The position numbers and the translations under genes are program-made. 64,000 nt of DNA from an uncultured Acidobacteriota bacterium (GTDB lineage: Bacteria; Acidobacteriota; Vicinamibacteria; Fen-336), in contig CAVSPR010000006.1 of NCBI GenBank assembly GCA_963729875.1, positions 121,368 to 185,367 on the forward strand, written 5' to 3'. Shown piece by piece: positions 42,567-64,000 of the stretch. Within the stretch, counting starts at the first letter, position 1; each line of letters opens with the position of its first letter. The notes under the pieces were generated by a model that had not been told where the DNA came from, searched no databases, and saw nothing but the letters and a program-made list of their open reading frames with translations.

Positions 42567-43658
42567 ATGCTCCTCTACATCACCGCCGAGGACGTGCTGG
42601 GGAGCGGCGCCCCGGAGCGCCGGGGGCCCCGCCCGCTGCACGCGATCCCCTCGACCCTGTCCGGCCTCTTCGACCTCGGCCTCCGGCACCACGTGCGCCC
42701 GGCGGCCCTGGCCTGGTGGGAGAACGGCTCGCTCGAGCCGGTGCCGGACTGGCGGTTCGACCGGCTCGCGATCCGGCTCGCCCTGTTCGCGCGCGAGCGC
42801 CTGGGCGTCGAGCCGGGGGGCCGCGTGGCCGTGGTGGGCCGGCTCGGGTGGCTGTGGCCGGCCCTGGACTTCGCGGCGATGGGCTTCGGCGTGACGCCCG
42901 TCGGCGTCGAGCACGACGTGGAGGACGAGGCCCTCTCGTCGATCGTCGCCGAGGCCGCGCCGCGGGTCGCGTTCGCGACGGACGGCGAGTCCGCCGGACG
43001 GCTCGCCCGGCTGCGGCTGCAGGGCCGGCTCGGGGACGCGATCGTGGCGGCCGAGGGCCTGCCCCGGGAGCAGGGGCTGCTGCCCCTCGCCGATCTCCTG
43101 GGCCTGGCCTCCGTGCTCGACACCGCGGAGAGGGCCCAGGCGTTCCGCGCCTTCTCGCGCCAGGTCGCGCCCGACGATCCCGCCCTGTGGCACGCCGGTC
43201 CGCGCGGGAGCGTCCGCCTGACCCACCGGGAGGCGATGGCGGGGGTGGCGGACGGTCTGCGGTCGCGTCCCGCCCGCGAGGGCGACGTGGCGTACGTCGA
43301 CGCCCCCCGCGTGACGCTCAAGAAGCGGCTGGCCGTGGCGGCCTTCGTGGGCGACGGCCACACCACGACGGTGCTGGGGCGCGAGGGGCGGGCCGCCGAG
43401 GACGTGGCGGTGACCCGGCCGCACAAGGCCGTCTCGTCGGAGGGCTGGCCGCCGACCCTGTGCGACGGCCGGGGCTCGCGGTGGCCGGGCGGCCTCGACC
43501 GGTGGCGGGCGCGACGCCGGGTGCAGGAGGCCTTCGGGGGCCGCCTGCGCTGGCTCGAGGCGGGCTCGTCTCTCGGCGGGGACGCCGTGCGCGCTCTCGC
43601 CGCCGCGGGCATCGCCGTGGAGGTCGGGGACAGGGAGGCGCCTGCTCGGGCGTCGTGA
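42567..43658 (+). CDS. truncated/degenerate AMP-binding (long-chain acyl-CoA synthetase-like) protein
   Basis: LGVEPGGRVAVVG...LDFAAMGFG; PDDPALWH...VRLTH; EAFGGRLR; lacks YTSGTTG and the C-terminal domain. Confidence 0.7.
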   Translation: MLLYITAEDVLGSGAPERRGPRPLHAIPSTLSGLFDLGLRHHVRPAALAWWENGSLEPVPDWRFDRLAIRLALFARERLGVEPGGRVAVVGRLGWLWPALDFAAMGFGVTPVGVEHDVEDEALSSIVAEAAPRVAFATDGESAGRLARLRLQGRLGDAIVAAEGLPREQGLLPLADLLGLASVLDTAERAQAFRAFSRQVAPDDPALWHAGPRGSVRLTHREAMAGVADGLRSRPAREGDVAYVDAPRVTLKKRLAVAAFVGDGHTTTVLGREGRAAEDVAVTRPHKAVSSEGWPPTLCDGRGSRWPGGLDRWRARRRVQEAFGGRLRWLEAGSSLGGDAVRALAAAGIAVEVGDREAPARAS

Positions 43659-43707
43659 GCCGCGTGCGGCCCGGAGCGGGCCGCACGCGTGTGGGGAGGA
43701 GACAGTC

Positions 43708-45604: not shown

Positions 45605-46360
45605 CTAGAAACGGACCAGGAAGCCGGCCGTGGCGTGGATGTCGTGCTCGGCCTCTCCGCTGAGGAAGTGGTCGGTCACGAGGTAGTCGACCACGTCCAC
45701 GCGGGCGCCGACCCGGCCGAAGTAGATCTTGAGCCCCGCCCCGAAGCGCAGCGTGAAGTCCGTCTCGGACTCCCGGGCCCCGTCGTACGAGACCCCACCC
45801 GCCCCGAAGATCACGAAGGGGCGCACGTCTCCGCCCGTGATGTCGTAGGTGAGGCCGCCGCCGTAGTGCCACGCGGTGACGCTGCGGGTGCGGAGGCCTT
45901 CGAGGTCGACGCCGGCGACATCGGCCATGCCCGGCCCCCGCCCCCAGGGCCAGGGACCCTGCCCACGGTCGCCTCCCGCGCGGCCGTAACAGCGGCCTTC
46001 GACGCAAAGCTCGCCCCCGACCTCGAGGTCGTGCGTCGGCGCGACGGCGAAGTCGGCCTCGACCGCGAGCCGGCCCTTCACGTAGCGGGAGTACCGGACC
46101 CCGAAGAGCGCGCTCCCGCCGAGCGACGTGTCCGTGCGGACCTCGATGTCCGGGAACCCCGGCCAGCGGTCGCCGGCCCAGCCGGGCATGCCGATTGTCA
46201 TGTCCTGACCCCCGGTGGCGTCCAGGATGGACGCGCCCCCGAAGACCACGACCTCGTTCTTCGCGTCCGCCGCGGGTCCATCCGCGGTCGCGACCCTCGC
46301 CCCGCCCAGGAGGGCGAAGCCCATCAGGAACCCGGCTCCCACGACTCCACGATGTCTCAT
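45605..46360 (-). CDS. outer-membrane beta-barrel protein (OmpA/OmpW-like 8-strand)
   Basis: Signal peptide; VRPFVIFGAG, FGAGLKIYF, terminal GFLVRF. Confidence 0.8.
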   Translation of the reverse strand: MRHRGVVGAGFLMGFALLGGARVATADGPAADAKNEVVVFGGASILDATGGQDMTIGMPGWAGDRWPGFPDIEVRTDTSLGGSALFGVRYSRYVKGRLAVEADFAVAPTHDLEVGGELCVEGRCYGRAGGDRGQGPWPWGRGPGMADVAGVDLEGLRTRSVTAWHYGGGLTYDITGGDVRPFVIFGAGGVSYDGARESETDFTLRFGAGLKIYFGRVGARVDVVDYLVTDHFLSGEAEHDIHATAGFLVRF

Positions 46361-46531
46361 CAGTCTCTTCTCCTGGTCACGCCGCATCAGGTGACGGAGC
46401 CATTGGACCAGAAAGCCACGCGTCAGCATGTCAAGACGTCGCCGGCGGCGGCAAAGAGTTGTGAAGGCCCGCTCGGCGCGTCGCAACTAGAATAGCGTGC
46501 CAGCTCCGTTCCCGTCGTGGGAGGACCTGTC

Positions 46532-47197
46532 ATGAGAAAGACGACGCTTCCGCTCGCCGCACTGGCGATGCTGGCCTTCCCGGTGGCCGCCACCGCCCAG
46601 GAGCCGGCGCCGGCGAGCCCGCCGCCGGCCGCGCCCGAGGCCGAGGCCGAGGAGACCGGCTGGGAGTTCGGCCTGGCGGGGGCGCTGTACGTCCTGCCCG
46701 ACGAGGGGGACTACGTCCAGCCGACGTTCAGGGCGGACCACCGGCTCTTCCACTTCGAGACCCGGTACAACTACGAGGACCGCGACTCGACGTCGTTCTT
46801 CGTCGGCGCGAACTTCGAGTTCGGGGACAAGGTGAAGCTCTCCCTGACCCCGATGATCGGCGCCGTCGCCGGGCAGACGGACGGGATCATCCCGGGCCTC
46901 GAGGCGGACCTGTCGGCCTGGAAGCTCGAGTGGTACGGGGAGGCCGAATACGTGTTCGACCTCGAGGACAGCGAGTCGAACTACTTCTACATGTGGTCGG
47001 AGCTCAGTCTTTGGCCGACGGAGTGGCTGCGCGCGGGGGTGGTGACGCAGCGGACGCGCGTCTATCAGACGGACCGGGACGTCCAGCGGGGGCTGCTCGC
47101 GGGCTTCACGTTCAGGAAGGTCGACGGCACGGTCTACTTCTTCAACCCCGGCGCCGACGACCACTTCACGGTCGTCTCCCTCGGCGTCTCGTTCTGA
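46532..47197 (+). CDS. outer-membrane beta-barrel hypothetical protein
   Basis: GGAGG SD; signal peptide; ETRYNYED; terminal LGVSF. Confidence 0.8.
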   Translation: MRKTTLPLAALAMLAFPVAATAQEPAPASPPPAAPEAEAEETGWEFGLAGALYVLPDEGDYVQPTFRADHRLFHFETRYNYEDRDSTSFFVGANFEFGDKVKLSLTPMIGAVAGQTDGIIPGLEADLSAWKLEWYGEAEYVFDLEDSESNYFYMWSELSLWPTEWLRAGVVTQRTRVYQTDRDVQRGLLAGFTFRKVDGTVYFFNPGADDHFTVVSLGVSF

Positions 47198-47849: not shown

Positions 47850-50258
47850 TCAGCGGGCGGTGGCGCGGGCCCTTGCGTCGAACGCGCGACGCTCGGCCTC
47901 CGGCAGCGTCGCGGTCGCCGCCGCACGGCGGTAGACGTCCGCCGCCGCGTCTCGTCGCCCCTGGGCCTCGAGGAGAGTGCCGAGGAAGGCCCAGGCGTCG
48001 CGGTAGCCCGGGTGCCGCGTCACCAGGCCGCGGAGGACCCGCTCGGCGCCGGCCGGGTCGCCCGCCCTCTCGAGGTAGAACGCCTGGGTGAAGGCGTAAC
48101 GGGGATCCCCCGGGGCGCTCTCCGCGGCCCGCCCCGCGAGCGACGCGGCCTCCTTGGGGCTCGTCTCGGCCGCGAGGACGGCCAGGTTGTAGGCCGCCCC
48201 CGCGTTGCCGGGCTCGAGCTCGAGGGCGCGCCGCAGCTCGGCCTGGGCCTCGGAGTGAGGCCCCTTCTCTGCCAGCAGGAGCCCCAGGTTGAAGTGGGCC
48301 GCGGCGGTGCGCGGCTGCAGGCGAATCGCCTCGCGCAGCGTGGCCTCCGCCTCGGCGAGGCGACCGGCGCGCGCCTCGGCCATCGAGAGGTTGACGAGGC
48401 TCGCCACGTGGTCCGGGCGGAGGGCGAGGGCCTTGCGGTAGCGCTCGGCCGCCGCCGCGGCGTCGCCGCGCTCGAGCTGGAGGTTGCCCATGTTGTACTG
48501 CGAGGCGAAGTCGTCCGGTCGGGCGAGGAGCGACCGCTCGTGCTCGGACCGTGCGGCGAGGAAGGCGGCGCGGGCCGGCTCGGGGACCGTGGCGGGGTCG
48601 GTCGTCGGGAGCGCGGCGGCCGCCCTCACCCGCACGAGCCGCAGGTCGTCCCGGGTCGCGGCCAGGATGAGGTCGCGGGCGCCCGGGTCCGCCGCGAGGG
48701 TCGTCACCGCCGCCGCGCGGACGAGAGGCGAGGCGTCGGCGGCCAGGGCGCGAAGGGCCGGCCACTTCGACGGGTCGGGGCAGTCGGCGAGGAGCCGCAC
48801 GAGCGAGGCCGTCACGACCTCGTCGCGGGCCGGCTCTCCGAGGTAGGCCAGGACCTGCGGCAGGCGCGACCAGTCTCCCCTGCGCGCGGCCGCGACGAGC
48901 CGGCCTTCCCTCAGGATCCGCTCCGACCAACGGCCATGGCCCCAGTCGCGAACCGCCTTCTCGGCCCACGCCGCGCCGCGGTCCACGTGGCAGACGGTGC
49001 ACGCGTTCGGCGAGCCGAGCTCGCGGCTGGCGGCGGGGGAGGGCGGCCGCATCGAGTGGTCGCTGCGGATCATCCGCGCGAACTCGGTCTTGGGCATGTG
49101 GCAGTCGGTGCAGCGCGTGCCGGGGCCGTCCCCGGGGTGGCGCGTGTGGGCGGCGGCGTTCTTCACGCGCTCCTCGTGGCAGGGCAGGCAGGCGTCGTTC
49201 GGCCGGTCCTTCCACTTGTAGCGGCCGCTCGAGGTGTGGCAGTGCACGCAGTCGATCCGCCCCGACTTCGCGCAGGGGCTCATCCGCCACGAGGTGAGCG
49301 TGTAGTTCTCCCCGAGGTCGCGGCCGTCCGGGTAGTAGTCGGGGTTCTCGAGGGTCGTGAGGTCGAAGTGGTCGAAGAAGCGGTCGCCGGGGCGGAAGGA
49401 GGTCCAGAGGGGGCTCGCCTTGGCGTGGCAGGAGGAGCAGAGGTCGCTCCGCTGCTCCGTCGCGAGCCTCTTGACCGAGATGATCTTCCAGTCCGGCGGT
49501 GCCTTCCCGGGCGGCAGTCCCTCGAAGGCCTTCACGTGCGCGCCGGACGGGCCGTGGCAGGTCTCGCAGGAGACGCCGGGCTCCGCCCACACCGTGCGGT
49601 ACGAGTCGGTCGTCGGCTCGTAGTTCGTGGCCAGCTGGCTCACGTGGCAGCTGAAGCAGGAGGTGTTGAACGTGTAGGCCCGGTCCGTCCAGTCGAGCTC
49701 CTCGTCGATGCCGCCCTCGCTCGGGCGGCCCTCGGCCGTCGTCGACGCCGCGAAGTGCCGGACCGCGCTGCCCGCCGTCGAGAACCACTCCTTCCGGTGG
49801 ACGTCGTAGGCGACGGGGAGGACCTGCAGGAGACCGCGCTCGAGCGGGGTGAGAAAGTAGCAGACGTTCTTCCCGCCCAGCACCTGGACGATCGGGTAGA
49901 TCTTCTTCCCCTCCGGCCCCGTCTCCTCGACGTGGTCGGCGCCCGTCCCGATCACGGCCCGGTAGCTCCGCCCGCGGATCTCGATCGGCTTCTCCTGCGG
50001 CGTCAGCCGGTCGCGGGCGAAGTCCCCCGTGTGCGCCTGCATGGCGAGGCCGTGGAAGGACGTCGACCACTTCTGGAAGAAGACGGCGTGGCACGAGCGG
50101 CAGCTCGCGGAGCCGGCGAGCGGCGCCGGCGGCTCCGGCGGTGCCGAGGGAGGGGGTGGGGGGGCGAAGACGCGACCCGGGAGGAAGACGAGGGCGGCCA
50201 GGACGAGGGCCGTGGCCGAGCCGAGCGCGGCCATCACGTGACGGCGGTTCATGGGCAT
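47850..50258 (-). CDS. multiheme c-type cytochrome (8 CxxCH) with HEAT and TPR repeats
   Basis: CRSCH, CFSCH, CETCH, CSSCH, CVHCH, CLPCH, CTDCH, CTVCH; HEAT (DASPLVRAAA, DDLRLVRVRAA); TPRs; N-terminal TM. Confidence 0.9.
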   Translation of the reverse strand: MPMNRRHVMAALGSATALVLAALVFLPGRVFAPPPPPSAPPEPPAPLAGSASCRSCHAVFFQKWSTSFHGLAMQAHTGDFARDRLTPQEKPIEIRGRSYRAVIGTGADHVEETGPEGKKIYPIVQVLGGKNVCYFLTPLERGLLQVLPVAYDVHRKEWFSTAGSAVRHFAASTTAEGRPSEGGIDEELDWTDRAYTFNTSCFSCHVSQLATNYEPTTDSYRTVWAEPGVSCETCHGPSGAHVKAFEGLPPGKAPPDWKIISVKRLATEQRSDLCSSCHAKASPLWTSFRPGDRFFDHFDLTTLENPDYYPDGRDLGENYTLTSWRMSPCAKSGRIDCVHCHTSSGRYKWKDRPNDACLPCHEERVKNAAAHTRHPGDGPGTRCTDCHMPKTEFARMIRSDHSMRPPSPAASRELGSPNACTVCHVDRGAAWAEKAVRDWGHGRWSERILREGRLVAAARRGDWSRLPQVLAYLGEPARDEVVTASLVRLLADCPDPSKWPALRALAADASPLVRAAAVTTLAADPGARDLILAATRDDLRLVRVRAAAALPTTDPATVPEPARAAFLAARSEHERSLLARPDDFASQYNMGNLQLERGDAAAAAERYRKALALRPDHVASLVNLSMAEARAGRLAEAEATLREAIRLQPRTAAAHFNLGLLLAEKGPHSEAQAELRRALELEPGNAGAAYNLAVLAAETSPKEAASLAGRAAESAPGDPRYAFTQAFYLERAGDPAGAERVLRGLVTRHPGYRDAWAFLGTLLEAQGRRDAAADVYRRAAATATLPEAERRAFDARARATAR

Positions 50259-50344
50259 GGCGCAGACCGGTCTTGCTGCCGTCGCAGGCTACCAACTCCG
50301 GCCAGCGGGCGCCAGAGCCGATCGGATCATGCGTAGAATCGCTC

Positions 50345-51541: not shown

Positions 51542-51797
51542 GGCCGGCGGACCCGCAGGATCCCGTCAGACAGGCGACAGCTATCTCTCTGTCAGTAAAC
51601 CGGTTAGGTGCCAAGACATCCTGCGGCGGCGATGCGACAAATGAACTACCCGTCCTGAGATACCGGCAGGATTCAGTCCGGGGTGTCGTTTCGATAGGAT
51701 TGGGACGCTCCGTTGCGTTCGGGACCTTTCGTTGGACGCGGTTGTCCCTCCGCCCTCACAGAAGACCGCGGCGCGTCCGACATCTCCAGGGGGAAAC

Positions 51798-53435
51798 ATG
51801 GCGCGACTCGACGCCGAGATGCTCGACCAGATCCTGACGACGCTCCGGGAGTACGCGGAGAAGAACCTCCCGCCGGCGAAGCTGCTCGAGATCGAGCTCG
51901 GCCACGAGTTCCCCGAGAGGGTCATGAAAGACCTGTACGACCCGGGGCAGATCGGCCTCCACCTCCTGACCATCCCCGAGGAGTTCGGGGGCCTCGGCGG
52001 GGGGGCCTACGACATCTACCGGGTTTCCGAGGCGATGGCCTCGATCGACCTCGGGATCGCCACCGGCGTCCTCGCGACCTTCCTCGGCACGGACCCCATC
52101 AACGTCGGGGCCACGCCCGAGCAGAAGGCCGAGTGGCTGGGGGCCCTCGCCGAGCACGGCCACTTCTACGCGTACGGGGCGACCGAGCCGCAGGCCGGGA
52201 GCGACCTCGGCGCGCTGTCGACCACGGCGGTGCCGGTCGAGGAGGGCGGGAAGGTCGTCGGCTACCGGATCAGCGGCCGCAAGCAGTGGATCAGCAACGG
52301 CGGGGTGGCCGACCGCTACACGATCCTGGCGAACGCCCCCGGTGGGACCACCTGGTTCCTCGTGGACAAGGGGACCGAGGGCTTCACCGCCGGCAAGCCC
52401 GAGGACAAGCACGGCATCCGCGCCTCGAACACGGCCGCGCTCTTCCTCGAGAACGTCTACGTCCCGGCCGATCGGCTCATCGGCCTCGTCGAGGGCAAGG
52501 GCCTCGCCCAGGCGCAGGCGGTCTTCGGCTACACGCGCCTGATGGTCGCCGCCTTCGGCCTGGGCGCGGGTTGGGAGGCGCTGCGGCGGGCCATTCGCTA
52601 CGCGCAGGAGCGCGTGCAGGGCGGCGGGCCCCTCAGCCAGAAGCAGGGCTACACCCACAAGTTGCTGGTGCCGAACGCGGTGCGGCTCGAGGCCTCGCGC
52701 CACTACATCGAGTGGGTGGCGGAGAGGCTCGACGCGGGCGAGGACGACCTCGCCACCGAGGGCGCGGTGGCCAAGTACCTCGCCACCGAGGCGGGGAACA
52801 AGGCGGCCGAGGACGCGATCCAGGCCCTCGGCGGCTACGGCTACACCCGCGAGTACATGGTCGAGAAGATCAAGCGCGACGTGCGCATCACCACGATCTA
52901 CGAGGGCACCTCCGAGATCATGGAGTGGACGATCGCGCGGGACCGCTGGCAGCAGCACCTCAAGAGCCGGGGGCAGTACTACGTCGACTGGGCCGCGCGC
53001 GCGGACGAGAGGCACGCAAAGTCGCCGAACGTCGGGGCCGGCCACGCGGCCATGGCCCTGCGGTCGCTCGCGGCGCTCCTCGAGCGCGCGCGCCTCGACC
53101 GGCTCACCCGCAACCAGCACGTCCTCTTCCGGCTCGGGGAGCTGATCGCGTACGCGGAGACGGCCGCGCTCTTCGCCGAGCGGGCCGCCACCGCGCCGAC
53201 GAAGGCGAGCGGCCTCGAGCCGGCGACGCTCGAGGCCATGGCCCGCGTCCACGCGCGCGAGGCCTGCCTCAAGGTCGCGAGCGAGGGCCTGCGCTGGGCC
53301 ATCGGGGCCGGCCAGACCGACGCGAACCTGAAGCAGCAGCTCAACCTCGACGCCGCCGTGGCCGCCCAGGCCGGCCTCGTCGAGGACATGGACAAGATCG
53401 CGGCCGACCTCGTCCGGGCGTTCCCCGCCAAGTGA
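51798..53435 (+). CDS. acyl-CoA dehydrogenase family protein with extended C-terminal domain
   Basis: [43 protein letters not shown]. Confidence 0.93.
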
Positions 53436-53448
53436 AGGAGCAGCGTCG

Positions 53449-56400
53449 ATGAGCGACCGGAGCGAGAGAGCGGTAGCGATCGTCGGCCTCGGGGCCATCC
53501 TCCCCGACGCCCCCAGCGCCCGGGCCTTCCGCGACAACGTGTGGGCGAAGAAGTACTCGATCGTCGAGGTCCCGCCCGACCGCTGGAGCGTCGCCGACTA
53601 CTACGACCCCGACCCGACGGCGCCGGCCAAGACCTACAGCAAGATCGGCTCCTGGGTGCGCGGCTTCCAGTTCGACTGGAAGCGGTGGCGCGTCCCGCCG
53701 CGCGTGGCGGGGGCGATGGACGAGGGGCAGCAGTGGGCGATCACGATCGCCGCCGAGGCCCTCGCCGACTACGGCTGGCCCGGCAAGCCCCTCGACACCG
53801 AGCGGACCGCCGTCGTCCTCGGCAACGCGATGGCGGGGGAGCGGCACTACCTCACCACGCTCCGCATCTCGTTCCCCGAGTACCGCCGGCTGCTGAGCGA
53901 GACGAAGGAGTTCCTGGACCTGCCGGCCCCGGTGCGCGAGGCGATCCTCTCGCGCTGGTACGAGGTGGTCCGCAAGGGGATGCCCGAGATCACCGAGGAC
54001 ACGATGCCGGGGGAGCTGTCGAACATCCTCTCCGGCCGCGTCGCCAACGTGCTCAACCTGCGCGGGCCCAACTTCACGACCGACGCGGCCTGCGCTTCGA
54101 CGTTCGCCGCCCTCGACGCGGCCGTGGACATGCTGGTGGCGGGCCACTGCGACGCGGTCGTGACCGGCGGCGTCGACCGCAACATGGGCACGAACTCGTT
54201 CGTGAAGTTCTCGAAGATCGGCGCGCTCTCGGCCACCGGGACGCGGCCCTTCGGCGACGGCGCCGACGGCTTCGTGATGGGCGAGGGCTCGGCCGCGTTC
54301 CTGCTCAAGCGCCTCGCGGACGCCGAGCGCGACGGCGACCGGGTGTACGCGGTCGTGCGCGGCCTCGGCGGCTCCTCGGACGGCAAGGGCAAGGGCATCA
54401 CCGCCCCCAACCCGATCGGCCAGCAGCTTGCGATCGCGCGGGCGTGGGAGAACGCCGGGCTCGACCCGACGACCGCCGGCCTCGTCGAGGCCCACGGCAC
54501 GAGCACGAAGGTCGGGGACCTCGTCGAGGTCGAGAGCCTCGCCACCGTCTTCAAGGGCGCGGCGAAGGGACAGATCGCCCTCGGCTCCGCGAAGAGCAAC
54601 GTCGGCCACCTGAAGGCCGGCGCCGGCGCGGCGGGCCTGCTGAAGGCGGTCTGGGCGGTGCACGAGAAGGTGCTGCCGCCGACCCTCCACGCCCACCCGC
54701 CCAACCCCGGCATCGACTTCGCTTCGACGCCGTTCGTGCTCAACCACGACCTGCGCGAGTGGAAGCCGGCGAACGGCGCCCCGCGGCGCTGCGGCGTCTC
54801 CGCCTACGGCTTCGGGGGGACGAACTTCCACGTCGTCCTCGAGGAGCACGTGCCGGGCGCGCTCACGAAGGGCGCGCGGCCGGCCCAGGTGGCGGTGCCG
54901 TCGTCGATGCCGGCGGGAGGGTCGGTTGCTGCCCCGCGGCCGCCGCTGCGGGGCCTGCTCGTGGTCGGGGCGCAGTCCGTGGACGGCCTGCGCAAGAAGG
55001 TGGACGGCCTGCTCGCGCGCGCGAAGGATGGCCACGTGCCTCCGGTCGCCGTGCCCGACCCCGCCGACCTGATCGCGCGGGAGCGCATCGCGATCGACTA
55101 CGAGGACGGCAAGGAGCTCGTCGAGCGGCTGCAGAAGGCGCAGAAGGCCCTCGCCACCGACGCCCCCTCGACGTGGAGGGCCTTCCAGGCCCAGGGCGTC
55201 TTCCGCGGGAGCGGGCCCGCGCCCGGCAAGATCGCGTTCCTCTTCACCGGCCAGGGCAGCCAGTACGTGAACATGGGACGGGACCTCGCGCACGCCGACG
55301 AGCTGGTGGCGGGCGTCTTCGAGGAGGCCGACCGCGTCCTCGAGCCGCTCCTCGGCCGGAAGCTGACGAGCTACATCTTCGTGGATCGCCAGGACCCGGG
55401 GGCCGTCAAGCAGGCCGAGGAGGACCTGAAGCAGACGGCGATCACGCAGCCGGCCGTGCTCAGCATGGACACCGCGATGTGCCGGCTCCTCGGCGAGTAC
55501 GGTCTCGAGCCGGACATGGTGATGGGCCACTCGCTGGGCGAGTACGGCGCCCTCGTCGCGGCCGGCGTCCTCACGTTCGCCGAGGCGCTCGAGGCGGCCG
55601 CCGCCCGCGGCCGCGAGATGACCAAGGTCAGCTTCGGCGACAACGGGGCGATGGCGGCGGTCATGGCGCCGGCCGCCTTCGTCGTCGAGGAGCTGAAGAG
55701 CATCGAGGGCTACGTCGTCCCCGCGAACCTCAACGCCCGCGGCCAGGTGGTGATCGGCGGCGAGACGGCGGCGGTGGAGCGTGCCGTGGACGCCTTCAAC
55801 AAGAAGGGCTACCAGGCCCAGCGCCTCCCGGTGAGCCACGCCTTCCACACGAAGATCGTGGCCTCCGCGGCCGAGCCGCTGCGCAAGGTCCTCGACCGCT
55901 TCGACGTGCGCGCTCCCCGGCTGCCCCTCGTCGGCAACGTCACCGCCGACTTCTACCCTTCCGACCCCGAGGCGATCAAGGACATCCTCTGCCTCCAGAT
56001 CGCCTCCCCCGTGCGCTGGGTGGAGAGCGTCGAGCGTCTCTACGCAGCGGGCGCGCGAGCGTTCGTCGAGGTGGGGCCGAAGCGGGCGCTGAAGGGCTTC
56101 GTCGACGACGTCCTCGCCGACAAGACCGACGTCATGTCGCTCTTCACCAACCGGCCGCGGCCCAAGGAGGTCGCGAGCTTCAACCAGGCGCTGGCCGGGC
56201 TCTACGCCGCCGGCTACGGAACGCGGGAGGCCGCGGCCGTCCAGGTGGCGACCGTCCCGGTGGCGCGGCGCGAGTCTGCGCCCGCGCCGGTGGCGCCGGC
56301 GGCGGCGCCCGACACGCTGGGAGAGCTGCGGGCGCTCCTCCAGAAGGCGATCGACTCCCTGCCGACCGGACCCGTGGCGCGTGCCGAGGGGCCGTTCGAC

Positions 56401-59400
56401 CGCAACGACGTGCCGAAGGGCTCGGTCGTGATCAGCGGCACCGGCCTCGGGCTGCCGGGGGCGAACAAGCCCGTCATGGACCCGAAGAACGCCGCCCGGA
56501 TCCTGGCCGGCGAGCAGTTCGTCGGCCCCGTCCCGCAGCGCCACCGCGAGGGGATGGCCAGCCGCCGGGTCACGCAGCTCGTCAAGACCGCGGACGGCAG
56601 CGGGCACTTCCAGACGATCGACGACCCGAAGGACGTCATCAAGCTCGCCGCCCTTCCGGGCACGTTCGACCTGACCGCCGAGTACGGGGTCCCCGACAAG
56701 CTGGTCGAGGCGCTCGACTCGACGACCCAGCTCGCCATGGCGGCGGGGCTCGACGCCCTGCGCGAGGCGGGGATCCCGCTCGTGCAGACGTGGAAGAAGA
56801 CCACCACCGGCAAGTACCTGCCCGAGCGTTGGGTGCTGCCGGAGGCGATGCGCGACGAGACGGGCGTCATCTTCGCGAGCGCCTTCCCCGGGTACAACCG
56901 CTTCGCCGACGAGGCGCACCGCTACTACACGTTCGAAAGCCGGCGGGCGCAGAAGCGGCAGCTCGAGGAGCTGCTGGAAACGGCACGCGACGCGGGCACC
57001 CGGTCCGAGATCTCGCGCCGGGTCGCCGAGCTCGACGCGCGGCTCGAGAAGGAGCCCTACGCGTTCGACCGGCGCTTCCTGCTCCGCATCCTCACGATGG
57101 GCCACAGCCAGTTCGCCGAGTACGTCGGCGCCCGCGGGCCCAACACCCACGTCAACGTGGCCTGCGCCTCGACGGCGTCCGGCATCGCCCTGGCCGAAGA
57201 CTGGATCCGTTCGGGTCGCTGCCGGCGCGTGGTCGTCGTGGCCGCCGACAACGTGACGAGCGACGCCATGATCGAGTGGATCGGGGCCGGGTTCATCGCG
57301 AGCGGGGCGGGAGCGACGGACGAGCGGGTCGAGGACGCCGCCCTGCCGTTCGACCGCCGCCGCCACGGGACGCTCATCGGCATGGGCGCCTGCGCGCTCG
57401 TGGTCGAGAGCCAGGACGCGGTCGAGGAGCGCGGGATGCGGGGGATCGTGGAGCTCCTCGCCACGGAGAGCCGCAACAGCGCTTTCCACGCGACCCGTCT
57501 CGACGTGGCGCACGTGGCGGGCGTGGTGGAGAGCCTCGTCGCCTCGGCGGAGCGCCGCTTCGGCGTGAACCGGGCGGCGATGGCGCCGCGCACCGTGTTC
57601 GTGTCGCACGAGACGTACACGCCGGCGCGCGGCGGCAGCGCCGCCGCCGAGATCGCGGCCCTGCGGCAGGTCTTCGGGCCCAGCGCGGACCGGGTGATCG
57701 TGGCGAACACCAAGGGCTTCACCGGCCACCCCATGGGCGTCGGGATCGAGGACGTCATCGGCGTCAAGATCCTCGAGCACCAGATCGTGCCCCCGGTGCC
57801 GAACCTCAAGGAGCCCGACCCCGACCTCGGGAACCTGACCCTGTCGAAGGGCGGCCGGTACGATGTCGAGTACGCCATCCACCTCGCGGCCGGCTTCGGC
57901 TCGCAGATCGCGCTCACCCTGACGCGTCGGATCCCCGGGCCCGTCGACCGGGTGGACGACCGGGCACGCCACGAGTGGTGGCTGGCCGAGGCGAGCGGGC
58001 AGGACGGCGCACGGACGGAGGTCGTGAAGCGCGTGCTCCGCGTCGCGGCCGACGGCCCGCCGGCCCGACCGCCGGCGGCGAGCGCGTGGCGCTTCGGCCT
58101 CGGGCCCGTGAGGCGCGTGTCACCCGAGGGCGCGAGAGCGCCCGAGGGATCTCTCTCTCGTCCTCCCCTCCCACCCACGCAAGCGGAGAGCCGGCCTGGA
58201 AGGCCTTCCCGGAAGGCCCTCCGAACCGACGCCGAAGGATTTGCCCAAAACCACGACGCATTCCGCGCCGCCCGTCCGGATTGAAGCGCCGCGGAATGAC
58301 GTCGTGGAGAGGGTCCTCGCCATCGTGGCCGAGAAGACCGGTTACCCGCCCGACATGCTCGATCTGGAACTGGACCTCGAGGCGGACCTCGGCGTGGACA
58401 CGGTGAAGCAGGCGGAGACGTTCGCCGCGGTGCGCGAGGCCTACGGCATCGCCCGCCAGGAGAGCTTGAAGCTCCGCGACTTCCCGACCCTCAAGCACGT
58501 GGTGCAGTTTGTCTACGACTTCAGGCCGGATTTGCGCCCCTCCGAGGGCGCCTCTCCGGCGCGGCCCTCGGAGGCCGCCGGCACGGTCTCGTCCCCGCCC
58601 CTGTCTCCCTCGAAAGCCCCGGGGAAGGCCGGCTCAGATGAAGTCGTCCAGAAGGTGCTCGCCATCGTCGCCGAGAAGACCGGCTACCCGCCCGACATGC
58701 TCGAGATGGACCTCGACCTCGAGGCCGACCTGGGTGTCGACACGGTGAAGCAGGCGGAGACGTTCGCGGCGGTTCGCGAGGCCTATGGCATCGCGCGCCA
58801 GGAGAACCTGAAGCTCCGCGACTTCCCGACGCTCGCAGCACGTCGTGCAGTTCGTGTACGACTTCCGACCTGACTTGCGCCGTCCGGCGCTTCCCGCGCG
58901 CGGCCCTCCCAGACGCCGCCGACGGACTTGCCCCGAACCACGCCGCATTCCGCCGCGCCCGCTCCGGGTCGGAGCGGCTCGGAATGACGTCGTGGAGCAG
59001 GTCCTGTCCATCGTCGCCGAGAAGACCGGCTACCCCGAGGACATGCTCGAGATGGACCTCGACCTCGAGGCCGACCTCGGTGTGGACACGGTGAAGCAGG
59101 CGGAGACGTTCGCCGCGGTGCGCGAGGCCTACGGCATCGCGCGCCAGGAGAACCTGAAGCTTCGCGACTTCCCGACCCTCAAGCACGTCGTGCAGTTCGT
59201 GTACGACTTCAGGCCGGACTTGAAGCCGGGCTCTCCCGAGGGGCCTTCCCAGACGACGCCGACGGACTTGCCTAGAACCACGACGCATTCGTCGGCGCCC
59301 GGTCGAGCCGAAGCGCCTCGGAATGACGTCGTGGAGCGGGTGCTCGGGATCGTGGCCGAGAAGACCGGCTATCCCGTGGACATGCTCGAGATGGACCTCG

Positions 59401-62196
59401 ACCTCGAGGCCGATCTCGGGGTCGACACGGTGAAGCAGGCGGAGACGTTCGCGGCGGTTCGCGAGGCCTACGGCATCGCCGCGCCAGGAGAACATGAAGC
59501 TCCGCGACTTCCCGACGCTGAAGCACGTCGTCCAGTTCGTCTACGACTTCAGGCCGGATCTGGCACCCGAGGGCGCGAAAGCGCCCGAGGGACCTGCCGT
59601 TGCTCCCTCGGTGGCTCCCCCTTGTCTCATTGCTCCTGAGAAGGCCCCGGGGAAAGCCGGCGTAGAGCCCGCCCCCCGCCCCCTCGCCTCCCTCGCCGAC
59701 GCGGACAAGATGCCCCGCCGCGTCCCGGTCCCCTCCCTCCGCCCCGCCCTCGATCTCTGCAAGCCGACCGGCGTCGCCCTCGGCAAGGGCACGCGGGTGG
59801 TCGTGGTGGGCGACGCGGGCAGCGTCGGCCAGGCGCTGGCGAGCCGGCTCGAGAAGACCGGCGCGACGGTCCTGGCCCTCGACGGAGCGATCGCGACCGA
59901 CGAGGTGACGACTCGTCTCCAGACCTGGCTCGCGGAGGGGCCGGTCCAGGGGGTCTTCTGGCTTCCCGCCCTCGACGTCGAGCCCGCGATCGCGGAGATG
60001 GACCTCGCCGCGTTCCGCGAGGCCCTCCGCCGTCGCGCGAAGAACCTCCACGCGGCGATGCGCGCGCTCTACGAGAGCGTGGCCGCTCCCGGCACGTTCC
60101 TCGTGGCGGGCACCCGCATGGGCGGCCTGCACGGGCAGACGCCGGAGGGGGCCACCGCGCCCCTCGGCGGCGCGGTGGCCGGCTTCGCCAAGGCCTACAA
60201 GCGCGAGCGCCCCGAGGCCCTCGCCAAGGTGGTGGACTTCGCCCCCGGCGCTCCCGCGGCCGAGGTGGCCGAGGCCCTCGTGGCCGAGGCCCTGGGCGAC
60301 CCGGGCGTCGTCGAGGTCGGGCGCCACGACGATCTCCGCTGGACGATCACCCTCGAGGAGCGCCCGGCCGCCGACGGCCGGCCCGGCCTCTCGCTGACGA
60401 AGGACACCGTCTTCGTCGTGACCGGCGCCGCCGGCGGCATCACGTCCGCGATCGTGGCCGACCTCGCGGCGGCGAGCGGGGGCGGAGTGTTCTACCTGCT
60501 CGACCTCGTGGCGGAGCCGGCCCGATCCGACGCGAAGATCGCCCTCATCCGGCAGGACCGGGAGAAGCTGAAGCTCGCCCTCATCGAGGAGGCGCGCGCG
60601 AAGGGCGAGAAGCCGACGCCGGTGGCCATCGATCGCCAGATCATGGCGATCGAGCGGCAGGACGCCGCCCTGCGGGCGATCGAGTCGGTCGAGGCCGTCG
60701 GCGGCACGGCGCGGTGGCGCTCCGCCAACCTGCTCGATGGTCCCGCCGTCGCCGCGATCGTCGAGGAGATCCGCAGGGCCCACGGCCGGATCGACGTCCT
60801 CGTCCACGCCGGCGGGATCGAGATCAGCCGCAAGCTGTCGGAGAAGGAGGCTGGTGAGTTCGACCTCGTCCTCGACATCAAGGCCGACGGCTTCTTCAGC
60901 CTGCTGAAGGCGGCCGAGGGGATGCCCATCGGGGCGACGGTCGTCTTCAGCTCCGTGGCCGGCCGCTTCGGCAACGCGGGCCAGACCGACTACAGCGCGG
61001 CGAACAACCTCCTGTGCGCGATGTCGAGCGCGCTGCGGCGGACGCGGCCGGAAACGAAGGCGATCGCGATCGACTGGACGGCCTGGGGCGGCATCGGCAT
61101 GGCCACCCGCGGGTCGATCCCGCAGATCATGGCCGCGGCGGGGATCTCCATGCTGCCGCCGGAGTCCGGGATCCCGACCGTCCGCCGGGAGCTGGTGGCG
61201 GGCGGGGGCTCGGGCGAGCGGGTCGTGGCGGGGACGCTCGGGATCATGGGTGCGGAGTACGACCCGACGGGGGGCCTCGACGTCGAGAAGATGAAGGCCG
61301 CGATCGCCGGACGCAAGCGGCCCCTCCTCATGGTCGGTGCGGTCAAGGCCGCGCGCCTCTACGGCGGCGTCGCCGTCGAGACGACGCTCGACCCCCGGGA
61401 GCAGCCGTTCCTCCTCGACCACCAGATCGACGGCGTTCCCGTCCTGCCCGGGGTGATGGGCACCGAGGCGTTCGCCGAGGTGGCGAGCGTCCTCTGCCCG
61501 GGCTTCCACGTGGCGTCCGTCGAGGACGAGACGTTCCTCCTGCCGTTCAAGTTCTTCCGCAACCAGCCGGCCACCCTGCACCTGCACGCGGTCGCGATGC
61601 CGGCCGGCGTGGGCGAGATCCTGGTCGCCGCCGAGCTGCGGTCGGTCGTTCAGCCGAAGCCGGAGCTGCCGGCGCAGGAGCGGGTCCACTTCAGGGCGCG
61701 GGTCCGGATGACGCGGGAGACCCGGCCGGCCCCGAGGGTCGCGTTCAAGAAGCCGGCGGCGAAGGCGCTCACGATCGGGAAGGGCGCGATCTACGAGGTC
61801 TACTTCCACGGTCCCGCCTACCAGGTGCTCGAGCGGGCGGCGGTCGAGGGGGACGGCGTCGTGGCCCTCATGACGGCGGGCCTGCCGTCGAACGCGAGGC
61901 CCGCCGAGGCCGAGGCGCTCATGGCACCTCGGCTCCTCGAGCTGTGCTTCCAGGCCGCCGGCCTGTGGCTCCTGGCGAAGAAGGAGACGATGGGCCTGCC
62001 CACGGCCCTCGGGCGGGCGGTCGCGTACCGGGGGGAGGAGGCGGCGGGCGAGAGGCGGCTGTACGCGACGGTGGAGGTGCTCCGTGACGGGGAGGCGTTC
62101 GACGCCCGGGTCGTGGACGAGAAGGGGCAAGTCCACGCCGAGGTGGTCGGGTACCGGACCGTCGCGCTGCCCGAGCGGCGTGCGCTGAAAGGCTAG
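53449..62196 (+). CDS. iterative type I PKS/FAS (PfaA-like): KS-AT-KS-ACPx4-KR-DH; apparent frameshifts near 58210, 58835, 59479
   Basis: KS1 [21 protein letters not shown]; AT GQGSQ, GHSLGE, HAFH; KS2 [19 protein letters not shown]; 4 ACPs; [30 protein letters not shown]; [28 protein letters not shown]. Confidence 0.9.
58298..59561 (+). repeat. four tandem near-identical ACP-domain repeats separated by Pro/Thr-rich linkers
   Basis: Units start near 58298, 58638, 58985, 59324: [74 protein letters not shown]. Confidence 0.92.
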
Positions 62197-62200
62197 GGAC

Positions 62201-64000
62201 GTGGGTCGCAGCTTCAGCCGCGTCGCCGTCGTGAACCGCGGCGAGGCGGCGCTGCGCTTCATCCACGCCGCCCTCGAGCTCAACCGCGAGGGAGAGCGCC
62301 TCCGCACGATCGCGCTCTTCACCGAGCCCGACCGCCGCGCCCTCTTCGTGCGGGAGGCGGACGAGGCGTGGGAGCTCGGCCCGGCCATGGTCGAGGGCGC
62401 CGACGGCCGGCGCAAGGTCGCCTACGTGGACCTCCCGCGGCTCGAGCGGGCGCTCGTCGAGACGAGGGCGGAGGCGGCGTGGCCGGGCTGGGGCTTCGTG
62501 GCGGAGCAGCCGGCCTTCGCCGAGATGTGCGAGCGGCTGGGGGTGACGTTCATCGGCCCCTCGCCGGCGGCGATGCGGGCCCTCGGCGACAAGATCGCGG
62601 GCAAGCGGCTCGCCGAGGGGCTCGGCATCCCGGTCGTCCCCTGGGCCGGGGCCCCCACCGCGAGCGAAGCCGAAGCCCAGGCGCAGGCGGCCGAGATGGG
62701 CTTCCCGGTGATGGTGAAGTCGACCGCGGGGATCGGGGGCCGCGGGGTCCGCGAGGCCGAAACGCCGGGGGCCCTCGCGGGTGCTTTGAAGGCGGCGCGG
62801 ACCGAGGCCTGGAGGTGGTTCGGCCAGGCCACCGTGTTCCTCGAGAGGCGCCTCGACGGCGTCCGGCACGTGGACATCCAGGTGGTGAGCGACGCATGGG
62901 GGAGCGTGTGGACCCTCCCCGCGCGCGAGGCGTCGATCCAGAGGCGCCACCAGAAGCTGGTCGAGGAGTCCCCGGTGCCCGGCCTCCCGCCGGCCCGGGA
63001 GGCGGCGATGCGGCATGCGGCGGGGCGCCTCGTCCGGGCCGCCGGCTACGTCGGCGCGGCGGCGGTCGAGTTCCTGTACGACCCCTCCTCGGAGGACTTC
63101 TGGTTCCTCGAGGCCAACACGCGGCTCGAGGTGGAGCACGGCGTCTCCGAGGTGACGACGGGTCTCGACCTCGTGAAGCTGCAGGTGCACGTCGCCCGGG
63201 GCGGCCGCCTGCCCGGGGAGCCGCCCGCGGCCTCCGGCCACGCCGTCGAGGTCCGGCTGTGCGCGGAGGACGCCGAGGCCGGCTTCGCCCCCGCCCCGGG
63301 GACCGTGGCGCGCCTGAGGCTCCCCGGCGGCCCCGGCCTCCGCGTGGACGCGGGGGTGGCCGAGGGCGACGCCGTGCCCGCCGAGTTCGACTCGATGATC
63401 GCCAAGGTCATCGCGCACGGGCAAGACCGCGAGGAGGCGCTCGGCCGTCTCTCCCGCGGCCTCGCCCAGACCGCGGTCATCCTGCGCGGCGGCACCACGA
63501 ACAAGGCCTTCCTCCTCGACCTGCTCGACCGCGAGGAGGTGCGCACCGGGCGCCTCGACGTCCGCTTCCTCGACCGGCTGGTGGCCCGGGGCGAGCAGAC
63601 CTCGCGCCGCCACGCCGAGCTCGCTCTCGTGCGGGCCGCGATCGAGGCATACGAGGCGGAAGCCGACGGCGAGAAGGCGCGCTTCCTCTCGACCGCGGTT
63701 CGGGGGCGGCCCGAGGTGCGGCCGGAGACCTCCCGCACGGTCGAGCTGCGCCAGGGCGGCCAGTCCTACGCCGTCGTGGTGAGGCGCATCGCCGTGGACC
63801 GGTACCGCGTGGAGGAGGCCGGGCACCGGGTCGACGTCGGCGTGGAGCGGCTGGGGTCTCCGCTCCGTGAGCGCCGGCTGCAGACGTCCGAGTGGCGCCT
63901 CCTGTGCGGCGGCTCGACGTGGCGGGTGCTGTCGCTCGTCCAGGGCCGCTCCCACCTCGTGGAGGTTGAGGGCGTGCCCCACACCTTCACCCGGGACACC
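62201..64000 (+). CDS. biotin carboxylase domain of an acyl-CoA carboxylase, probably multidomain (runs off the window end; absent from the ORF track)
   Basis: VAVVNRGEAALR, WPGWGFVAE, FIGPSPAAMRALGDK, GGRG, SIQRRHQKLVEESP, FLEANTRL, EVRLCAED, FDSMIAKVI. Confidence 0.92.
   Translation, partial: MGRSFSRVAVVNRGEAALRFIHAALELNREGERLRTIALFTEPDRRALFVREADEAWELGPAMVEGADGRRKVAYVDLPRLERALVETRAEAAWPGWGFVAEQPAFAEMCERLGVTFIGPSPAAMRALGDKIAGKRLAEGLGIPVVPWAGAPTASEAEAQAQAAEMGFPVMVKSTAGIGGRGVREAETPGALAGALKAARTEAWRWFGQATVFLERRLDGVRHVDIQVVSDAWGSVWTLPAREASIQRRHQKLVEESPVPGLPPAREAAMRHAAGRLVRAAGYVGAAAVEFLYDPSSEDFWFLEANTRLEVEHGVSEVTTGLDLVKLQVHVARGGRLPGEPPAASGHAVEVRLCAEDAEAGFAPAPGTVARLRLPGGPGLRVDAGVAEGDAVPAEFDSMIAKVIAHGQDREEALGRLSRGLAQTAVILRGGTTNKAFLLDLLDREEVRTGRLDVRFLDRLVARGEQTSRRHAELALVRAAIEAYEAEADGEKARFLSTAVRGRPEVRPETSRTVELRQGGQSYAVVVRRIAVDRYRVEEAGHRVDVGVERLGSPLRERRLQTSEWRLLCGGSTWRVLSLVQGRSHLVEVEGVPHTFTRDT

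Follow-up and report, generated by a model that had tools for sequence, protein, structure and literature searches.

Results

The window, that is, the whole stretch of 64,000 nucleotides analyzed here, carries on its forward strand an acyl-CoA dehydrogenase family gene (51645..53435; Pfam Acyl-CoA_dh_N/M/1) directly upstream of a multidomain synthase. The top NCBIfam match of its product is the acryloyl-CoA reductase AcrC at 236 bits, under the cut-off of 640, and the protein may serve the system as an enoyl reductase or an acyl-ACP dehydrogenase. The first part of the synthase (53449..58284, plus strand, frame 1; Pfam ketoacyl-synt, Ketoacyl-synt_C, and Acyl_transf_1) comprises a KS, a malonyl-type AT, and a second KS-like domain, which corresponds to the "CLF" of Shulse and Allen (PMC3098273). 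This domain is represented by a second ketoacyl-synt match at residues ~1217-1450 and retains its Cys (VACAS). Four ACP domains follow, and the second part (59494..62196, plus strand; Pfam KR, adh_short, PKS_DH_N, and PS-DH) holds the end of ACP4, a linker, a KR, and a PKS-type DH. The domain order is KS-AT-KS2-ACP4-KR-DH in the window and KS-AT-KS2-ACPn-KR-DH in the family. The active sites of KS, AT, KR, and DH had looked intact in an earlier sequence-only reading of this DNA, and their motifs were indeed found: DAACAS in the KS, GHSLGE and HAFH in the AT, YSAANN in the KR, and a 10-residue motif in the DH. The start of a single-chain acetyl-CoA carboxylase (ACC) gene lies at 62201..64000 on the same strand and runs past the window end; the full gene (L051:257-5839) encodes 1860 aa with the Pfam order BC-BCCP-central-CT.

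These genes belong to a conserved operon with the order acyl-CoA dehydrogenase, synthase, single-chain acetyl-CoA carboxylase, and 4'-phosphopantetheinyl transferase (PPTase). Over 80 loci, the conserved neighbor clusters are ACAD, ACC, PPTase, ETF, and a CCG protein. In 63 related loci, the sequence extends at least 2.5 kb upstream of the synthase, and the acyl-CoA dehydrogenase gene was found there in 57; the single-chain ACC was found downstream in 43 of 76. Besides the ACPs of the synthase, no further carrier domain was found in the operon.

The four tandem PP-binding domains span about 58298-59565, and each has one 11-residue motif in which the Ser position at the N terminus of helix II is taken by Thr, encoded by ACG in all four copies. 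As the sequence-only reading had stated, the Thr codons begin at 58400 in ACP1 (58298..58537; codon 58400-58402), 58742 in ACP2 (58640..58879; codon 58742-58744), 59088 in ACP3 (58986..59225; codon 59088-59090), and 59427 in ACP4 (59325..59565; codon 59427-59429), all on the plus strand. The variability that it had noted at the surrounding synonymous sites is also present, with pairs of copies differing at 14-20 of 150 nt from helix I to the helix II core and by 7-12 synonymous codons each, while the Thr codon is constant. In environmental contigs, the Thr codon position of ACP3 is ACC or ACT, which are synonymous Thr codons. Likewise, the 50-residue cores contain 0, 0, 1, and 0 Ser, in line with its remark that no Ser lies near helix II, and these four domains are the sole PF00550 matches in the span of contig C6 covered by the window, so that no stand-alone ACP is present there; a PF00550 search of the genome located AcpP beyond the window at C6:682823.

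All four domains match PF00550 above the cut-off of 20.8 bits, with scores of 50.5 and 44 bits. An AlphaFold2 model of the ACP (pLDDT 93.0) contains helices at residues 2-14, 35-49, and 65-75, with helix II beginning at Thr35, and the best Foldseek matches to this model are ACPs with TM values of 0.79-0.86. The Thr aligns with the DS serine of the solved ACPs PigH (5y08) and T. thermophilus ACP (1x3o). By profile score and helical fold the domains belong to PF00550, and they lack the Ser at the N terminus of helix II.

The synthase gene of the window is not one open frame, a point on which the sequence-only reading was silent. KS-AT-KS2 occupies frame 1 as far as 58284; the reading then shifts to frame 2 for ACP1-2 and to frame 0 for ACP3-4, and it is back in frame 1 for KR-DH, from ~59480. 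The gene therefore contains at least three frameshifts. The first zone (58184..58236, plus strand), located between KS2 and ACP1 by translation in three frames and a tblastn comparison with an intact orthologue, changes frame 1 to 2; a one-base insertion at ~58834-58837 breaks the C-terminal helix of ACP2 and changes frame 2 to 0; and a one-base insertion at ~59478-59482 in ACP4 changes frame 0 to 1. Two further frameshifts are probably present in the linker between ACP2 and ACP3. One independent metagenome contig omits one base at 58184, and two independent contigs omit one base within the ACP2 break, at 58834 and 58837.

The Thr is conserved across relatives of this synthase. In 10 same-genus loci, it is present in 27 of 27 ACP copies, including those in single open frames of 2585-3154 aa. 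Over 80 loci of at least eight phyla, Thr was found in 298 of 298 copies (ACG 147, ACC 122, ACT 15, and ACA 14), of which the search pattern forced Thr in 80 and left it free in 218. The labels of these loci are Acidobacteriota, Chloroflexota, Myxococcota, Gemmatimonadota, Actinomycetota, Rhodothermales, Leptospiraceae, and Calditrichota. An unbiased phmmer search gave Thr in 425 of 589 aligned ACP stretches and all-Thr arrays in 117 of the best 150 cluster representatives. Moreover, at least 600 stretches match the Thr pattern across 185,579 species genomes. The arrays of relatives hold 2-6 copies, and the residues invariant in 15 diverse ACP sequences are T14, G15, Y16, E28, L31, G32, D34, T35, K37, and Q38. 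A KS tree with 48 rows places the Thr type in one clade, inside which a single all-Ser array (P0127) is nested, and the tree has two Ser/Thr changes compared with a shuffled mean of 11.6, with 0 of 500 shuffles as low. P0082 combines Ser, Thr, and Thr within one array. The sequence-only reading had allowed that close homologs might all have Ser; they clearly do not, as the homologs are all-Thr across phyla. The Thr at the ACP site is neither decay nor error.

In 37 of 76 loci, the synthase or the ACC is followed immediately, on the same strand, by the gene of a PF01648 protein (62.5 bits; cut-off 25) assigned to the PPTase clade c3. Among the 31 related loci whose sequence continues for at least 7 kb downstream, 16 have no c3 gene nearby. 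Near the synthase, no PPTase gene was found within the window or over the next 20 kb; the c3 gene of this genome (G000:C7:69828-70553; PF01648 49 bits) is unlinked to the synthase, and the same-genus genome G009 has a c3 PPTase in operon position. In an alignment of 17 c3 sequences, GxDxE and WxxKExxLK are invariant in all, and these Mg/CoA motifs together with the PF01648 score above cut-off place c3 among the Sfp-type PPTases. No NCBIfam equivalog was found for c3, with HetI reaching 29.9 bits versus its cut-off of 370. The clade has its own invariant segments, LGRWTAK and GLxxDTR. The c3 of this genome reads MTDR, and the matching two positions are SH in 15 of the 17 aligned sequences.

The sequence-only reading had suggested a search for co-occurring PPTase clades, and c3 answers to it both in the operon and across genomes. 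In a phylum sample of 301 genomes, the tandem Thr motif was present in 18 and a reversed control pattern in 0. The c3 profile reached at least 170 bits in 16 of the 301, all 16 among the 18 Thr-type genomes, versus 0 of the other 283, where the best score was 94 bits; these counts were made among related genomes and overstate independence. In one of the remaining two Thr-type genomes, G339, a c3 fragment is truncated by the end of its contig; the other, G274, which is 81% complete, gave no match. The positives are spread over eight families, and c3 and the Thr array lie on the same contig within 10 kb in 10 of the 16 and are unlinked in 6. A contrast was also observed within one genus, where G218 has both the Thr array and c3 and G197 has neither. 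In addition, P0220 (1630 aa) has at least five Thr-ACPs, a KR, and a DH fused to a C-terminal c3-like PPTase domain, which matches c3 with an hhalign probability of 99.2% (E 1.8e-19).

A complex model of the genome's own c3 with ACP1, CoA, and Mg scored 0.89, compared with 0.00 for the best of three controls; in calibration, 58 of the 80 complexes with solved structures reached the mark, as did 2 of the 110 mismatched pairs. At least 92% of the contacts agree between runs, and the pLDDT of the partner is at least 87. Residues 28-36 of the ACP, including Thr35, are predicted to contact E114, W151, E155, and the clade-specific 164-170 segment of the PPTase. PPTase-carrier complexes have already been solved, and the pass of the model may therefore reflect likeness to those.

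Discussion

The Thr residues, their conservation, the ACP fold, the operon, and a PPTase clade that co-occurs exclusively with the Thr arrays were all observed in this analysis, and we consider it probable that Thr is the phosphopantetheine site and is served by a dedicated PPTase. The modification of Thr, the part of c3 as the modifying enzyme, and the identity of the product are what we infer beyond these observations. The four domains would be working acyl carriers of an iterative PfaA-like synthase whose attachment residue is Thr throughout the clade. The Sfp-like c3, the final operon gene in many relatives and unlinked here, would take the arm from CoA and attach it to the hydroxyl group of the Thr at the N terminus of helix II. 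The resulting holo-ACPs may ferry malonyl and growing acyl chains among KS, KR, and DH, with malonyl-CoA supplied by the adjacent single-chain acetyl-CoA carboxylase. The adjacent acyl-CoA-dehydrogenase-family enzyme, together with ETF in acidobacterial loci, could fill the place of the missing enoyl reductase or work as a desaturase.

The sequence-only reading had left two alternatives, a PPTase that modifies Thr or structural domains in a synthase that uses CoA thioesters or a trans-ACP. The former is supported and the latter is less favored, because the c3 clade lies in the operon and is strong only in Thr-type genomes. If the Thr domains were never phosphopantetheinylated, they would be structural or docking pseudo-ACPs, and the synthase would work on CoA thioesters or a Ser-type ACP in trans such as AcpP. 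The block that Thr imposes on modification of E. coli AcpP (PMC3340395), the separate AcpP at C6:682823, and the lack of an adjoining PPTase gene in the window all agree with this. However, the most strongly conserved part of the ACP is exactly the motif recognized by PPTases and partners, arrays of 2-6 copies are maintained as in productive PfaA, one whole array has returned to Ser inside the Thr clade, and the PPTase clade, besides its operon position, is fused once and is strong only alongside Thr-type arrays; we regard pseudo-ACPs as unlikely. Slightly less probable still is an indirect link, in which Thr or another residue bears a different prosthetic group or modification, or c3 serves another Ser-type carrier. 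Although c3 has the clade-specific invariant residues GLxxDTR and lies apart from the Thr array in 6 of the 16 phylum genomes, it retains the Sfp-type Mg/CoA catalytic motifs, the conserved operon has no second carrier domain, and the P0220 fusion contains Thr-type carriers only.

The frameshifts raise the separate question of whether this genome carries a decaying pseudogene, with genuine breaks and a Thr that is now only a relic, whatever function it may have elsewhere. At least three and probably five frame changes fall inside 1.4 kb, and the PPTase gene is unlinked in this genome. On the other hand, the breaks are confined to the tandem repeat, whereas the flanking gene parts of 4.9 kb and 2.7 kb are open and maintain a GC3 of 0.95-0.96. 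The genome is in 11 contigs yet only 86% complete, and few-contig genomes of the same genus are also 65-86% complete with split frames, whereas short-read genomes of the genus have single frames of 2585-3154 aa. At two of the breaks, independent contigs of low depth (2.7-4.3) are one base shorter. The frameshifts are most likely assembly errors of a long-read metagenome-assembled genome, and decay is improbable, although function in this particular organism is uncertain because the gene in the window is itself frameshifted.

To our knowledge, the attachment Ser of carriers is treated as invariant in fatty acid, polyketide, and nonribosomal peptide synthesis, and annotation rules and engineering tools depend on it. 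In the literature searched, we found no mention of O-phosphopantetheinyl-threonine or of the Thr in these carriers and no MS or biochemical evidence of Thr-linked phosphopantetheine. On balance, we lean toward a carrier family that crosses phyla and uses O-phosphopantetheinyl-threonine through a co-inherited PPTase, the pair being insulated from Ser-specific PPTases within a self-contained lipid factory. By the same slight preference, this factory would consist of the ACC, the iterative synthase, and a flavin/ETF-linked reductase and would be common among soil members of the Acidobacteriota, Chloroflexota, Myxococcota, and other groups. Confirmation would add a new kind of protein modification, explain why automatic pipelines may label Thr-type domains inactive, provide synthetic biology with an orthogonal carrier/transferase pair, and open a way to the lipid from a cluster that bacteria of soils and wetlands very commonly carry.

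The cluster type itself matches the Type R secondary lipid synthase cluster described earlier (Shulse and Allen 2011, PMC3098273), whose product was uncharacterized there. In that paper, Type R has one pfaA homologue of the order KS-MAT-CLF-ACP(3-6)-KR followed by a PPTase gene, with an ACC gene between the two in Koribacter, and is scattered across Acidobacteria, Chloroflexi, and Elusimicrobia, the named genomes being Koribacter, Solibacter, Roseiflexus, and Elusimicrobium (PMC3098273). By this description, the loci here fit Type R in domain order, ACC/PPTase order, and taxa (PMC3098273), and the one-gene layout was found as KS, AT, second KS-like domain, four ACPs, and KR, then DH. The words threonine and serine do not occur in its main text, which hence contains no description of the Thr site, and the same text makes no mention of the upstream acyl-CoA dehydrogenase or ETF genes seen here (PMC3098273).

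The synthase also resembles PfaA (TIGR02813) of marine PUFA synthases in its logic of KS, AT, tandem ACPs, KR, and DH, and the tandem ACPs of both have the common motif KTGYP...DLGxD. Against the TIGR02813 cut-off of 1010.1, the Thr-type homologues P0004 and P0071 score 1198.8 and 979.6 bits, and the split of the gene holds the pieces in the window to 614.4 and 170.2 bits. In canonical PfaA, the ACP motif is DLGIDSIKRVEI with Ser in 27 of 27 copies in nine sister-family loci, which agrees with the LGIDS given in the sequence-only reading and from which the Thr type differs. Unlike the Thr type, canonical PfaA has no second KS between AT and ACPs. Between the end of the KS and the first ACP lie 577-766 aa in the eight rows that make up the two deepest Ser clades; most Thr-type rows have ~1080-1270 aa there, and four Ser rows and P0127 have 1007-1130 aa. 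In Ser-type relatives, a PfaE-like PPTase adjoins pfaA; homologues of pfaB, pfaC, and pfaD (AT, KS-CLF-DH2, and ER) were not seen adjoining Thr-type genes.

As for the transferase, c3 is like the Sfp/HetI/PfaE-type PPTases in PF01648, GxDxE, WxxKExxLK, and its modeled placement on carrier helix II, as in solved pairs, but differs from them in the LGRWTAK and GLxxDTR segments and in being strong only in Thr-type genomes. E. coli ACP S36T cannot be modified, is nonfunctional, and does not replace acpP (PMC3340395), so at least one PPTase class rejects Thr. The Ser-to-Thr swap is the same in both cases; in E. coli AcpP it is a mutation, whereas here it is the natural, conserved state of a large family.

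Threonine occupies the attachment position of all four ACP domains

Window positions 58215–59558 are taken up by a tandem repeat with a 342-bp unit in 3.9 copies, which in the correct frames encodes four PP-binding domains (PF00550; 50.5 and 44 bits, cut-off 20.8). Each of these ACPs contains the ACG threonine codon, at 58400, 58742, 59088, and 59427, respectively, inside a common 11-residue motif, and the encoded threonine aligns with the DS serine of solved ACPs, none of the seven PDB matches having threonine at this site. In the AlphaFold2 model of the ACP (pLDDT 93.0), helix II comprises residues 35–49 and begins with Thr35, and the closest solved folds are ACPs (TM 0.79–0.86). The KS, AT, KR, and DH motifs are present in the synthase, whose active sites had looked intact in the sequence-only reading. 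Because the threonine aligns with the ACP serine, helix II starts at Thr35, the fold is that of an ACP, and the synthase motifs are present, the observation of threonine in all four domains is correct. The variation reported at synonymous sites was also recovered, as the cores of any two ACPs differ at 14–20 of 150 nt, with 7–12 synonymous codon differences per pair, and the threonine codon itself is constant. The 50-residue cores of ACP1 to ACP4 contain 0, 0, 1, and 0 serines, the lone one being in helix I of ACP3.

Threonine is conserved across a wide family of synthases

The synthase gene with threonine is found in 10 of 16 other genomes of the genus, where all 27 ACP copies carry the window's threonine motif. 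In the sister family, which has the canonical Pfa-type DLGIDSIKRVEI, serine is present in 27 of 27 copies from nine loci, in agreement with the earlier claim that Pfa-type ACPs have serine. The possibility raised there that close homologues all have serine was not borne out, given these same-genus copies and the 80 best loci of a wider search, in which 298 of 298 ACP copies have threonine (80 forced by the search pattern and 218 free of it) and all four threonine codons are in use. That search, with LG[IV]DTVKQ[AV] in 185,579 species genomes, returned at least 600 matches, 599 of them confirmed by tblastn among the matches listed, and the best 80 loci are labelled Acidobacteriota, Chloroflexota, Myxococcota, Gemmatimonadota, Actinomycetota, Rhodothermales, Leptospiraceae, and Calditrichota, among others.

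When ACP1 was searched with phmmer against 1.84 billion cluster representatives, 5939 matches reached E ≤0.001, including 805 at ≤1e-30. Among the best 150 of these 5939 proteins, the 589 aligned ACP stretches divide into 425 with threonine, 150 with serine, 11 with a gap, and 3 with some other residue; by protein, 117 are all-Thr, 27 all-Ser, and 6 mixed or artefactual. A further 111 proteins found by shared words, a set biased to the motif, have threonine in 498 of 499 copies. The third ACP of P0109, a 286-aa fragment, ends in DLGVDCLLYTSDAADEED, which resembles an artefact of a contig end or adapter rather than a Cys variant.

A KS tree was built from 48 rows: the window, and those proteins of 1900 aa or longer whose KS alignment exceeded 380 columns (47 of 53, six being dropped). 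The threonine type forms one clade, with a single all-Ser array (P0127) nested within it, and the support values are weak because the tree was made with FastTree. Only two Ser/Thr changes are needed, compared with a mean of 11.6 after shuffling, and none of the 500 shuffles came down to two. Since P0127 is nested in the clade and P0082 has Ser, Thr, and Thr within one array, serine and threonine substitute for each other at this exact position, as would be expected if both bore the same group. The near absence of serine in the clade, although serine and threonine codons are one base apart, suggests that threonine is required, beyond mere tolerance. As a speculation, it could insulate the carriers from other PPTases or from phosphodiesterases.

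The window copy has an interrupted reading frame

The window synthase gene is split over several frames, a feature that the sequence-only reading missed. By three-frame reading and tblastn (L006 rows only), KS-AT-KS2 ends at 58284 in frame 1, ACP1-2 lies in frame 2, ACP3-4 in frame 0, and KR-DH in frame 1 from approximately 59480; two further shifts are likely in the linker between ACP2 and ACP3. Every break falls inside the repeat; the 4.9 kb of gene leading up to it and the 2.7 kb beyond are uninterrupted, at a GC3 of 0.95–0.96. The window genome consists of 11 contigs, yet its completeness is 86%. Same-genus genomes with few contigs are likewise 65–86% complete with split frames, and the short-read genomes have single frames of 2585–3154 aa. 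Short Logan contigs from other metagenomes have, at low depth, one base fewer at 58184 and at 58834/58837; these come from other samples, none crosses the full stretch, and the third break at approximately 59478 lies outside their cover. We regard the frame breaks as very probably errors of long-read assembly.

Artefactual or degenerative origins of the threonines were weighed together. A read error or a relic of gene conversion is ruled out by the synonymous variation between copies, by the four threonine codons in relatives, and by environmental contigs that carry ACC or ACT at position 59090. Decay of the system in this lineage was rejected in view of six same-genus genomes that have such single open frames and all-Thr arrays, and a hidden nearby serine serving as the real site is ruled out by the serine counts of the ACP cores.

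A dedicated PPTase clade accompanies the threonine arrays

A check for a co-occurring PPTase clade, proposed in the sequence-only reading, was positive for c3, a clade of Sfp-like 4'-phosphopantetheinyl transferases. Among 301 evenly sampled genomes of the phylum, the tandem threonine motif occurs in 18 and a reversed control pattern in none. The c3 profile scores 170–313 bits in 16 of the 301 genomes, all of them among the 18, whereas the remaining 283 show no strong c3 (0/283, or 0/282 without G191, an unpublished genome with a generic PPTase match of 5.0e-13) and a top score of 94 bits; these profile counts carry no p-value, as related genomes are not independent. The two threonine-motif genomes below that level are G339, where a piece of c3 is cut by the contig end, and G274, which is 81% complete and has none. 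The positive genomes belong to eight families with negatives alongside, including a within-genus contrast (G218 versus G197), and in 10 of the 16, c3 and the ACPs share a contig and are at most 10 kb apart.

In the genus, a c3-like gene accompanies the threonine synthase in each of the 11 genomes that have the latter, and it takes the operon position in one of them (G009). The c3 orthologue of the window genome lies off the synthase contig, at C7:69828-70553 (L132:9829-10554, minus strand), between genes for a DPP-IV peptidase and a UbiA prenyltransferase, and its neighbours are unrelated. Its product is 50% identical to the c3 of an Acidimicrobiia locus and was matched by all 39 c3 queries; at E ≤1e-5 it has no match in 15 sampled genomes of the Ser-type family. 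In three Ser-type relatives that were checked, a PF01648 gene adjoins pfaA and aligns as PfaE-like; the reference PPTases read as PfaE-like were S_G026, S_G030, S_G034, and G025C2.

As in Sfp-type enzymes, c3 has the catalytic motifs GxDxE and WxxKExxLK, unchanged in 17 of 17 sequences, and it has invariant segments of its own, LGRWTAK and GLxxDTR. MTDR is found in the genus's own c3 and in one Acidimicrobiia c3, and SH stands at the two matching positions in the other 15 aligned. No NCBIfam equivalog was found for c3. The protein P0220 (1630 aa) combines at least five Thr-ACPs with KR, DH, and, at its C-terminus, a domain resembling c3 (hhalign probability 99.2%, E 1.8e-19), and is a natural carrier-transferase fusion. 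Its record, a partial entry, bears the label of a Thermoplasmatota archaeon MAG.

A large NRPS/PKS region of the window genome (C9:202000-268000) contains 17 PP-binding matches of the Ser type and has a PPTase of its own at C9:202509, so that carrier systems of both types, each with a separate PPTase, occur in this genome.

The predicted complex of c3 from the window genome with ACP1, CoA, and Mg scored 0.89, against 0.00 for the best of three controls; in the calibration, 58 of the 80 solved complexes reached the mark, as did 2 of the 110 mismatched pairs. Contacts agree by at least 92% between runs with partner pLDDT of at least 87, and place ACP residues 28–36 (including Thr35) and helix II against E114, W151, E155, and residues 164–170 of the PPTase. 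Because PPTase-carrier complexes have already been solved, the passing score may stem from likeness to them, and the model cannot discriminate threonine from serine chemistry.

Genes around the synthase

Upstream of the synthase lies an acyl-CoA dehydrogenase (ACAD) family gene at 51645–53435, with acryloyl-CoA reductase as its best NCBIfam match, below cut-off, and directly downstream lies a eukaryote-like, single-chain acetyl-CoA carboxylase (ACC) of 1860 aa with the order BC-BCCP-ACC_central-CT (window part 62201–64000; full gene L051:257-5839). Frames of the best 80 cross-phylum loci were clustered and representatives scanned against Pfam, which recovered the synthase in 76 of 80 as part of a conserved operon. 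Among these loci, ACAD precedes the synthase in 57 of 63 with at least 2.5 kb upstream, a count that includes a minus-strand cluster of ~600 aa at the same position, presumed to be an antisense shadow in high-GC loci. In 43 of 76 loci, across several phyla, ACC comes after the synthase, and a PPTase of ~250 aa (PF01648, 62.5 bits), which defines the c3 clade, occurs in 37 of 76, or 15 of 31 with at least 7 kb downstream, always on the synthase strand and directly after either the synthase or ACC. In acidobacterial loci (L061, L076, L083-L084, L087, L091, and others), genes for a CCG iron-sulfur protein and ETF beta and alpha stand before ACAD. The ACAD and ETF genes suggest a flavin/ETF-linked enoyl reduction or desaturation that replaces the PfaD-type ER. 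Three Thr-type proteins of ~3900–4040 aa (P0071, P0086, and P0117) have an NMO/PfaD-like enoyl reductase domain fused N-terminally before KS, and some members thus bring their own ER.

The second KS-like domain of the window (56900–57800, residues ~1217–1450 of the first ORF) keeps its Cys (NVACAS), an active-site-like residue that a classical chain-length factor is not known to have, and may be a second true ketosynthase.

Elsewhere in the window are an 812-aa multihaem cytochrome c fused to TPR repeats (47850–50288, minus strand; CXXCH-type Pfam hits) and a 712-aa radical SAM protein with an HMPTM-type zinc ribbon (43414–45552). Beside the latter gene, the frames at 45605–46486 (minus) and 46496–47197 (plus) gave no Pfam match.

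Proposed mechanism and comparison with known systems

The carrier fold has threonine at the attachment position, this threonine is strictly conserved, and the arrays have a private PPTase clade that reaches them in three ways: in the operon, fused, or co-inherited. The sequence-only reading had offered two alternatives, that a PPTase modifies threonine or that the domains are structural and the synthase uses CoA thioesters or a trans-ACP. The conservation and the c3 link make the former the best-supported reading, and we infer that threonine is probably modified in this way. Against it counts the S36T variant of Escherichia coli ACP, which was unmodified and non-functional (PMC3340395). If threonine is modified, c3 would move phosphopantetheine from CoA onto the threonine hydroxyl, and the holo-ACPs would then work with KS, KS2, AT, KR, and DH through iterative rounds for which the neighbouring ACC provides the feed, while ACAD, plus ETF where present, would carry out a desaturation or the enoyl reduction that is otherwise missing. 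A textbook invariant would thereby be overturned in a very common soil-bacterial system. No mention of a threonine attachment site or of threonine-linked phosphopantetheine in any carrier family was found in open-access papers and bioRxiv preprints, and the threonine site with its exclusive PPTase clade appears to be undescribed so far.

The family resembles canonical PfaA in sharing its profile (P0004, 1198.8 bits versus a cut-off of 1010.1), but differs in its threonine, its extra KS2, and the absence of pfaB, pfaC, and pfaD neighbours. The cluster type is already known but uncharacterised. The description of the Type R secondary lipid synthase (Shulse & Allen 2011, PMC3098273) gives the order KS-MAT-CLF-ACP(3-6)-KR with a downstream PPTase, an ACC gene between synthase and PPTase in Koribacter, a scattered distribution over Acidobacteria, Chloroflexi, and Elusimicrobia, and a product that is unknown; the words "threonine" and "serine" are absent from its main text. 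The second KS-like domain is named CLF in that literature, whereas that of the window keeps its Cys. By architecture and gene order, the cluster fits Type R.
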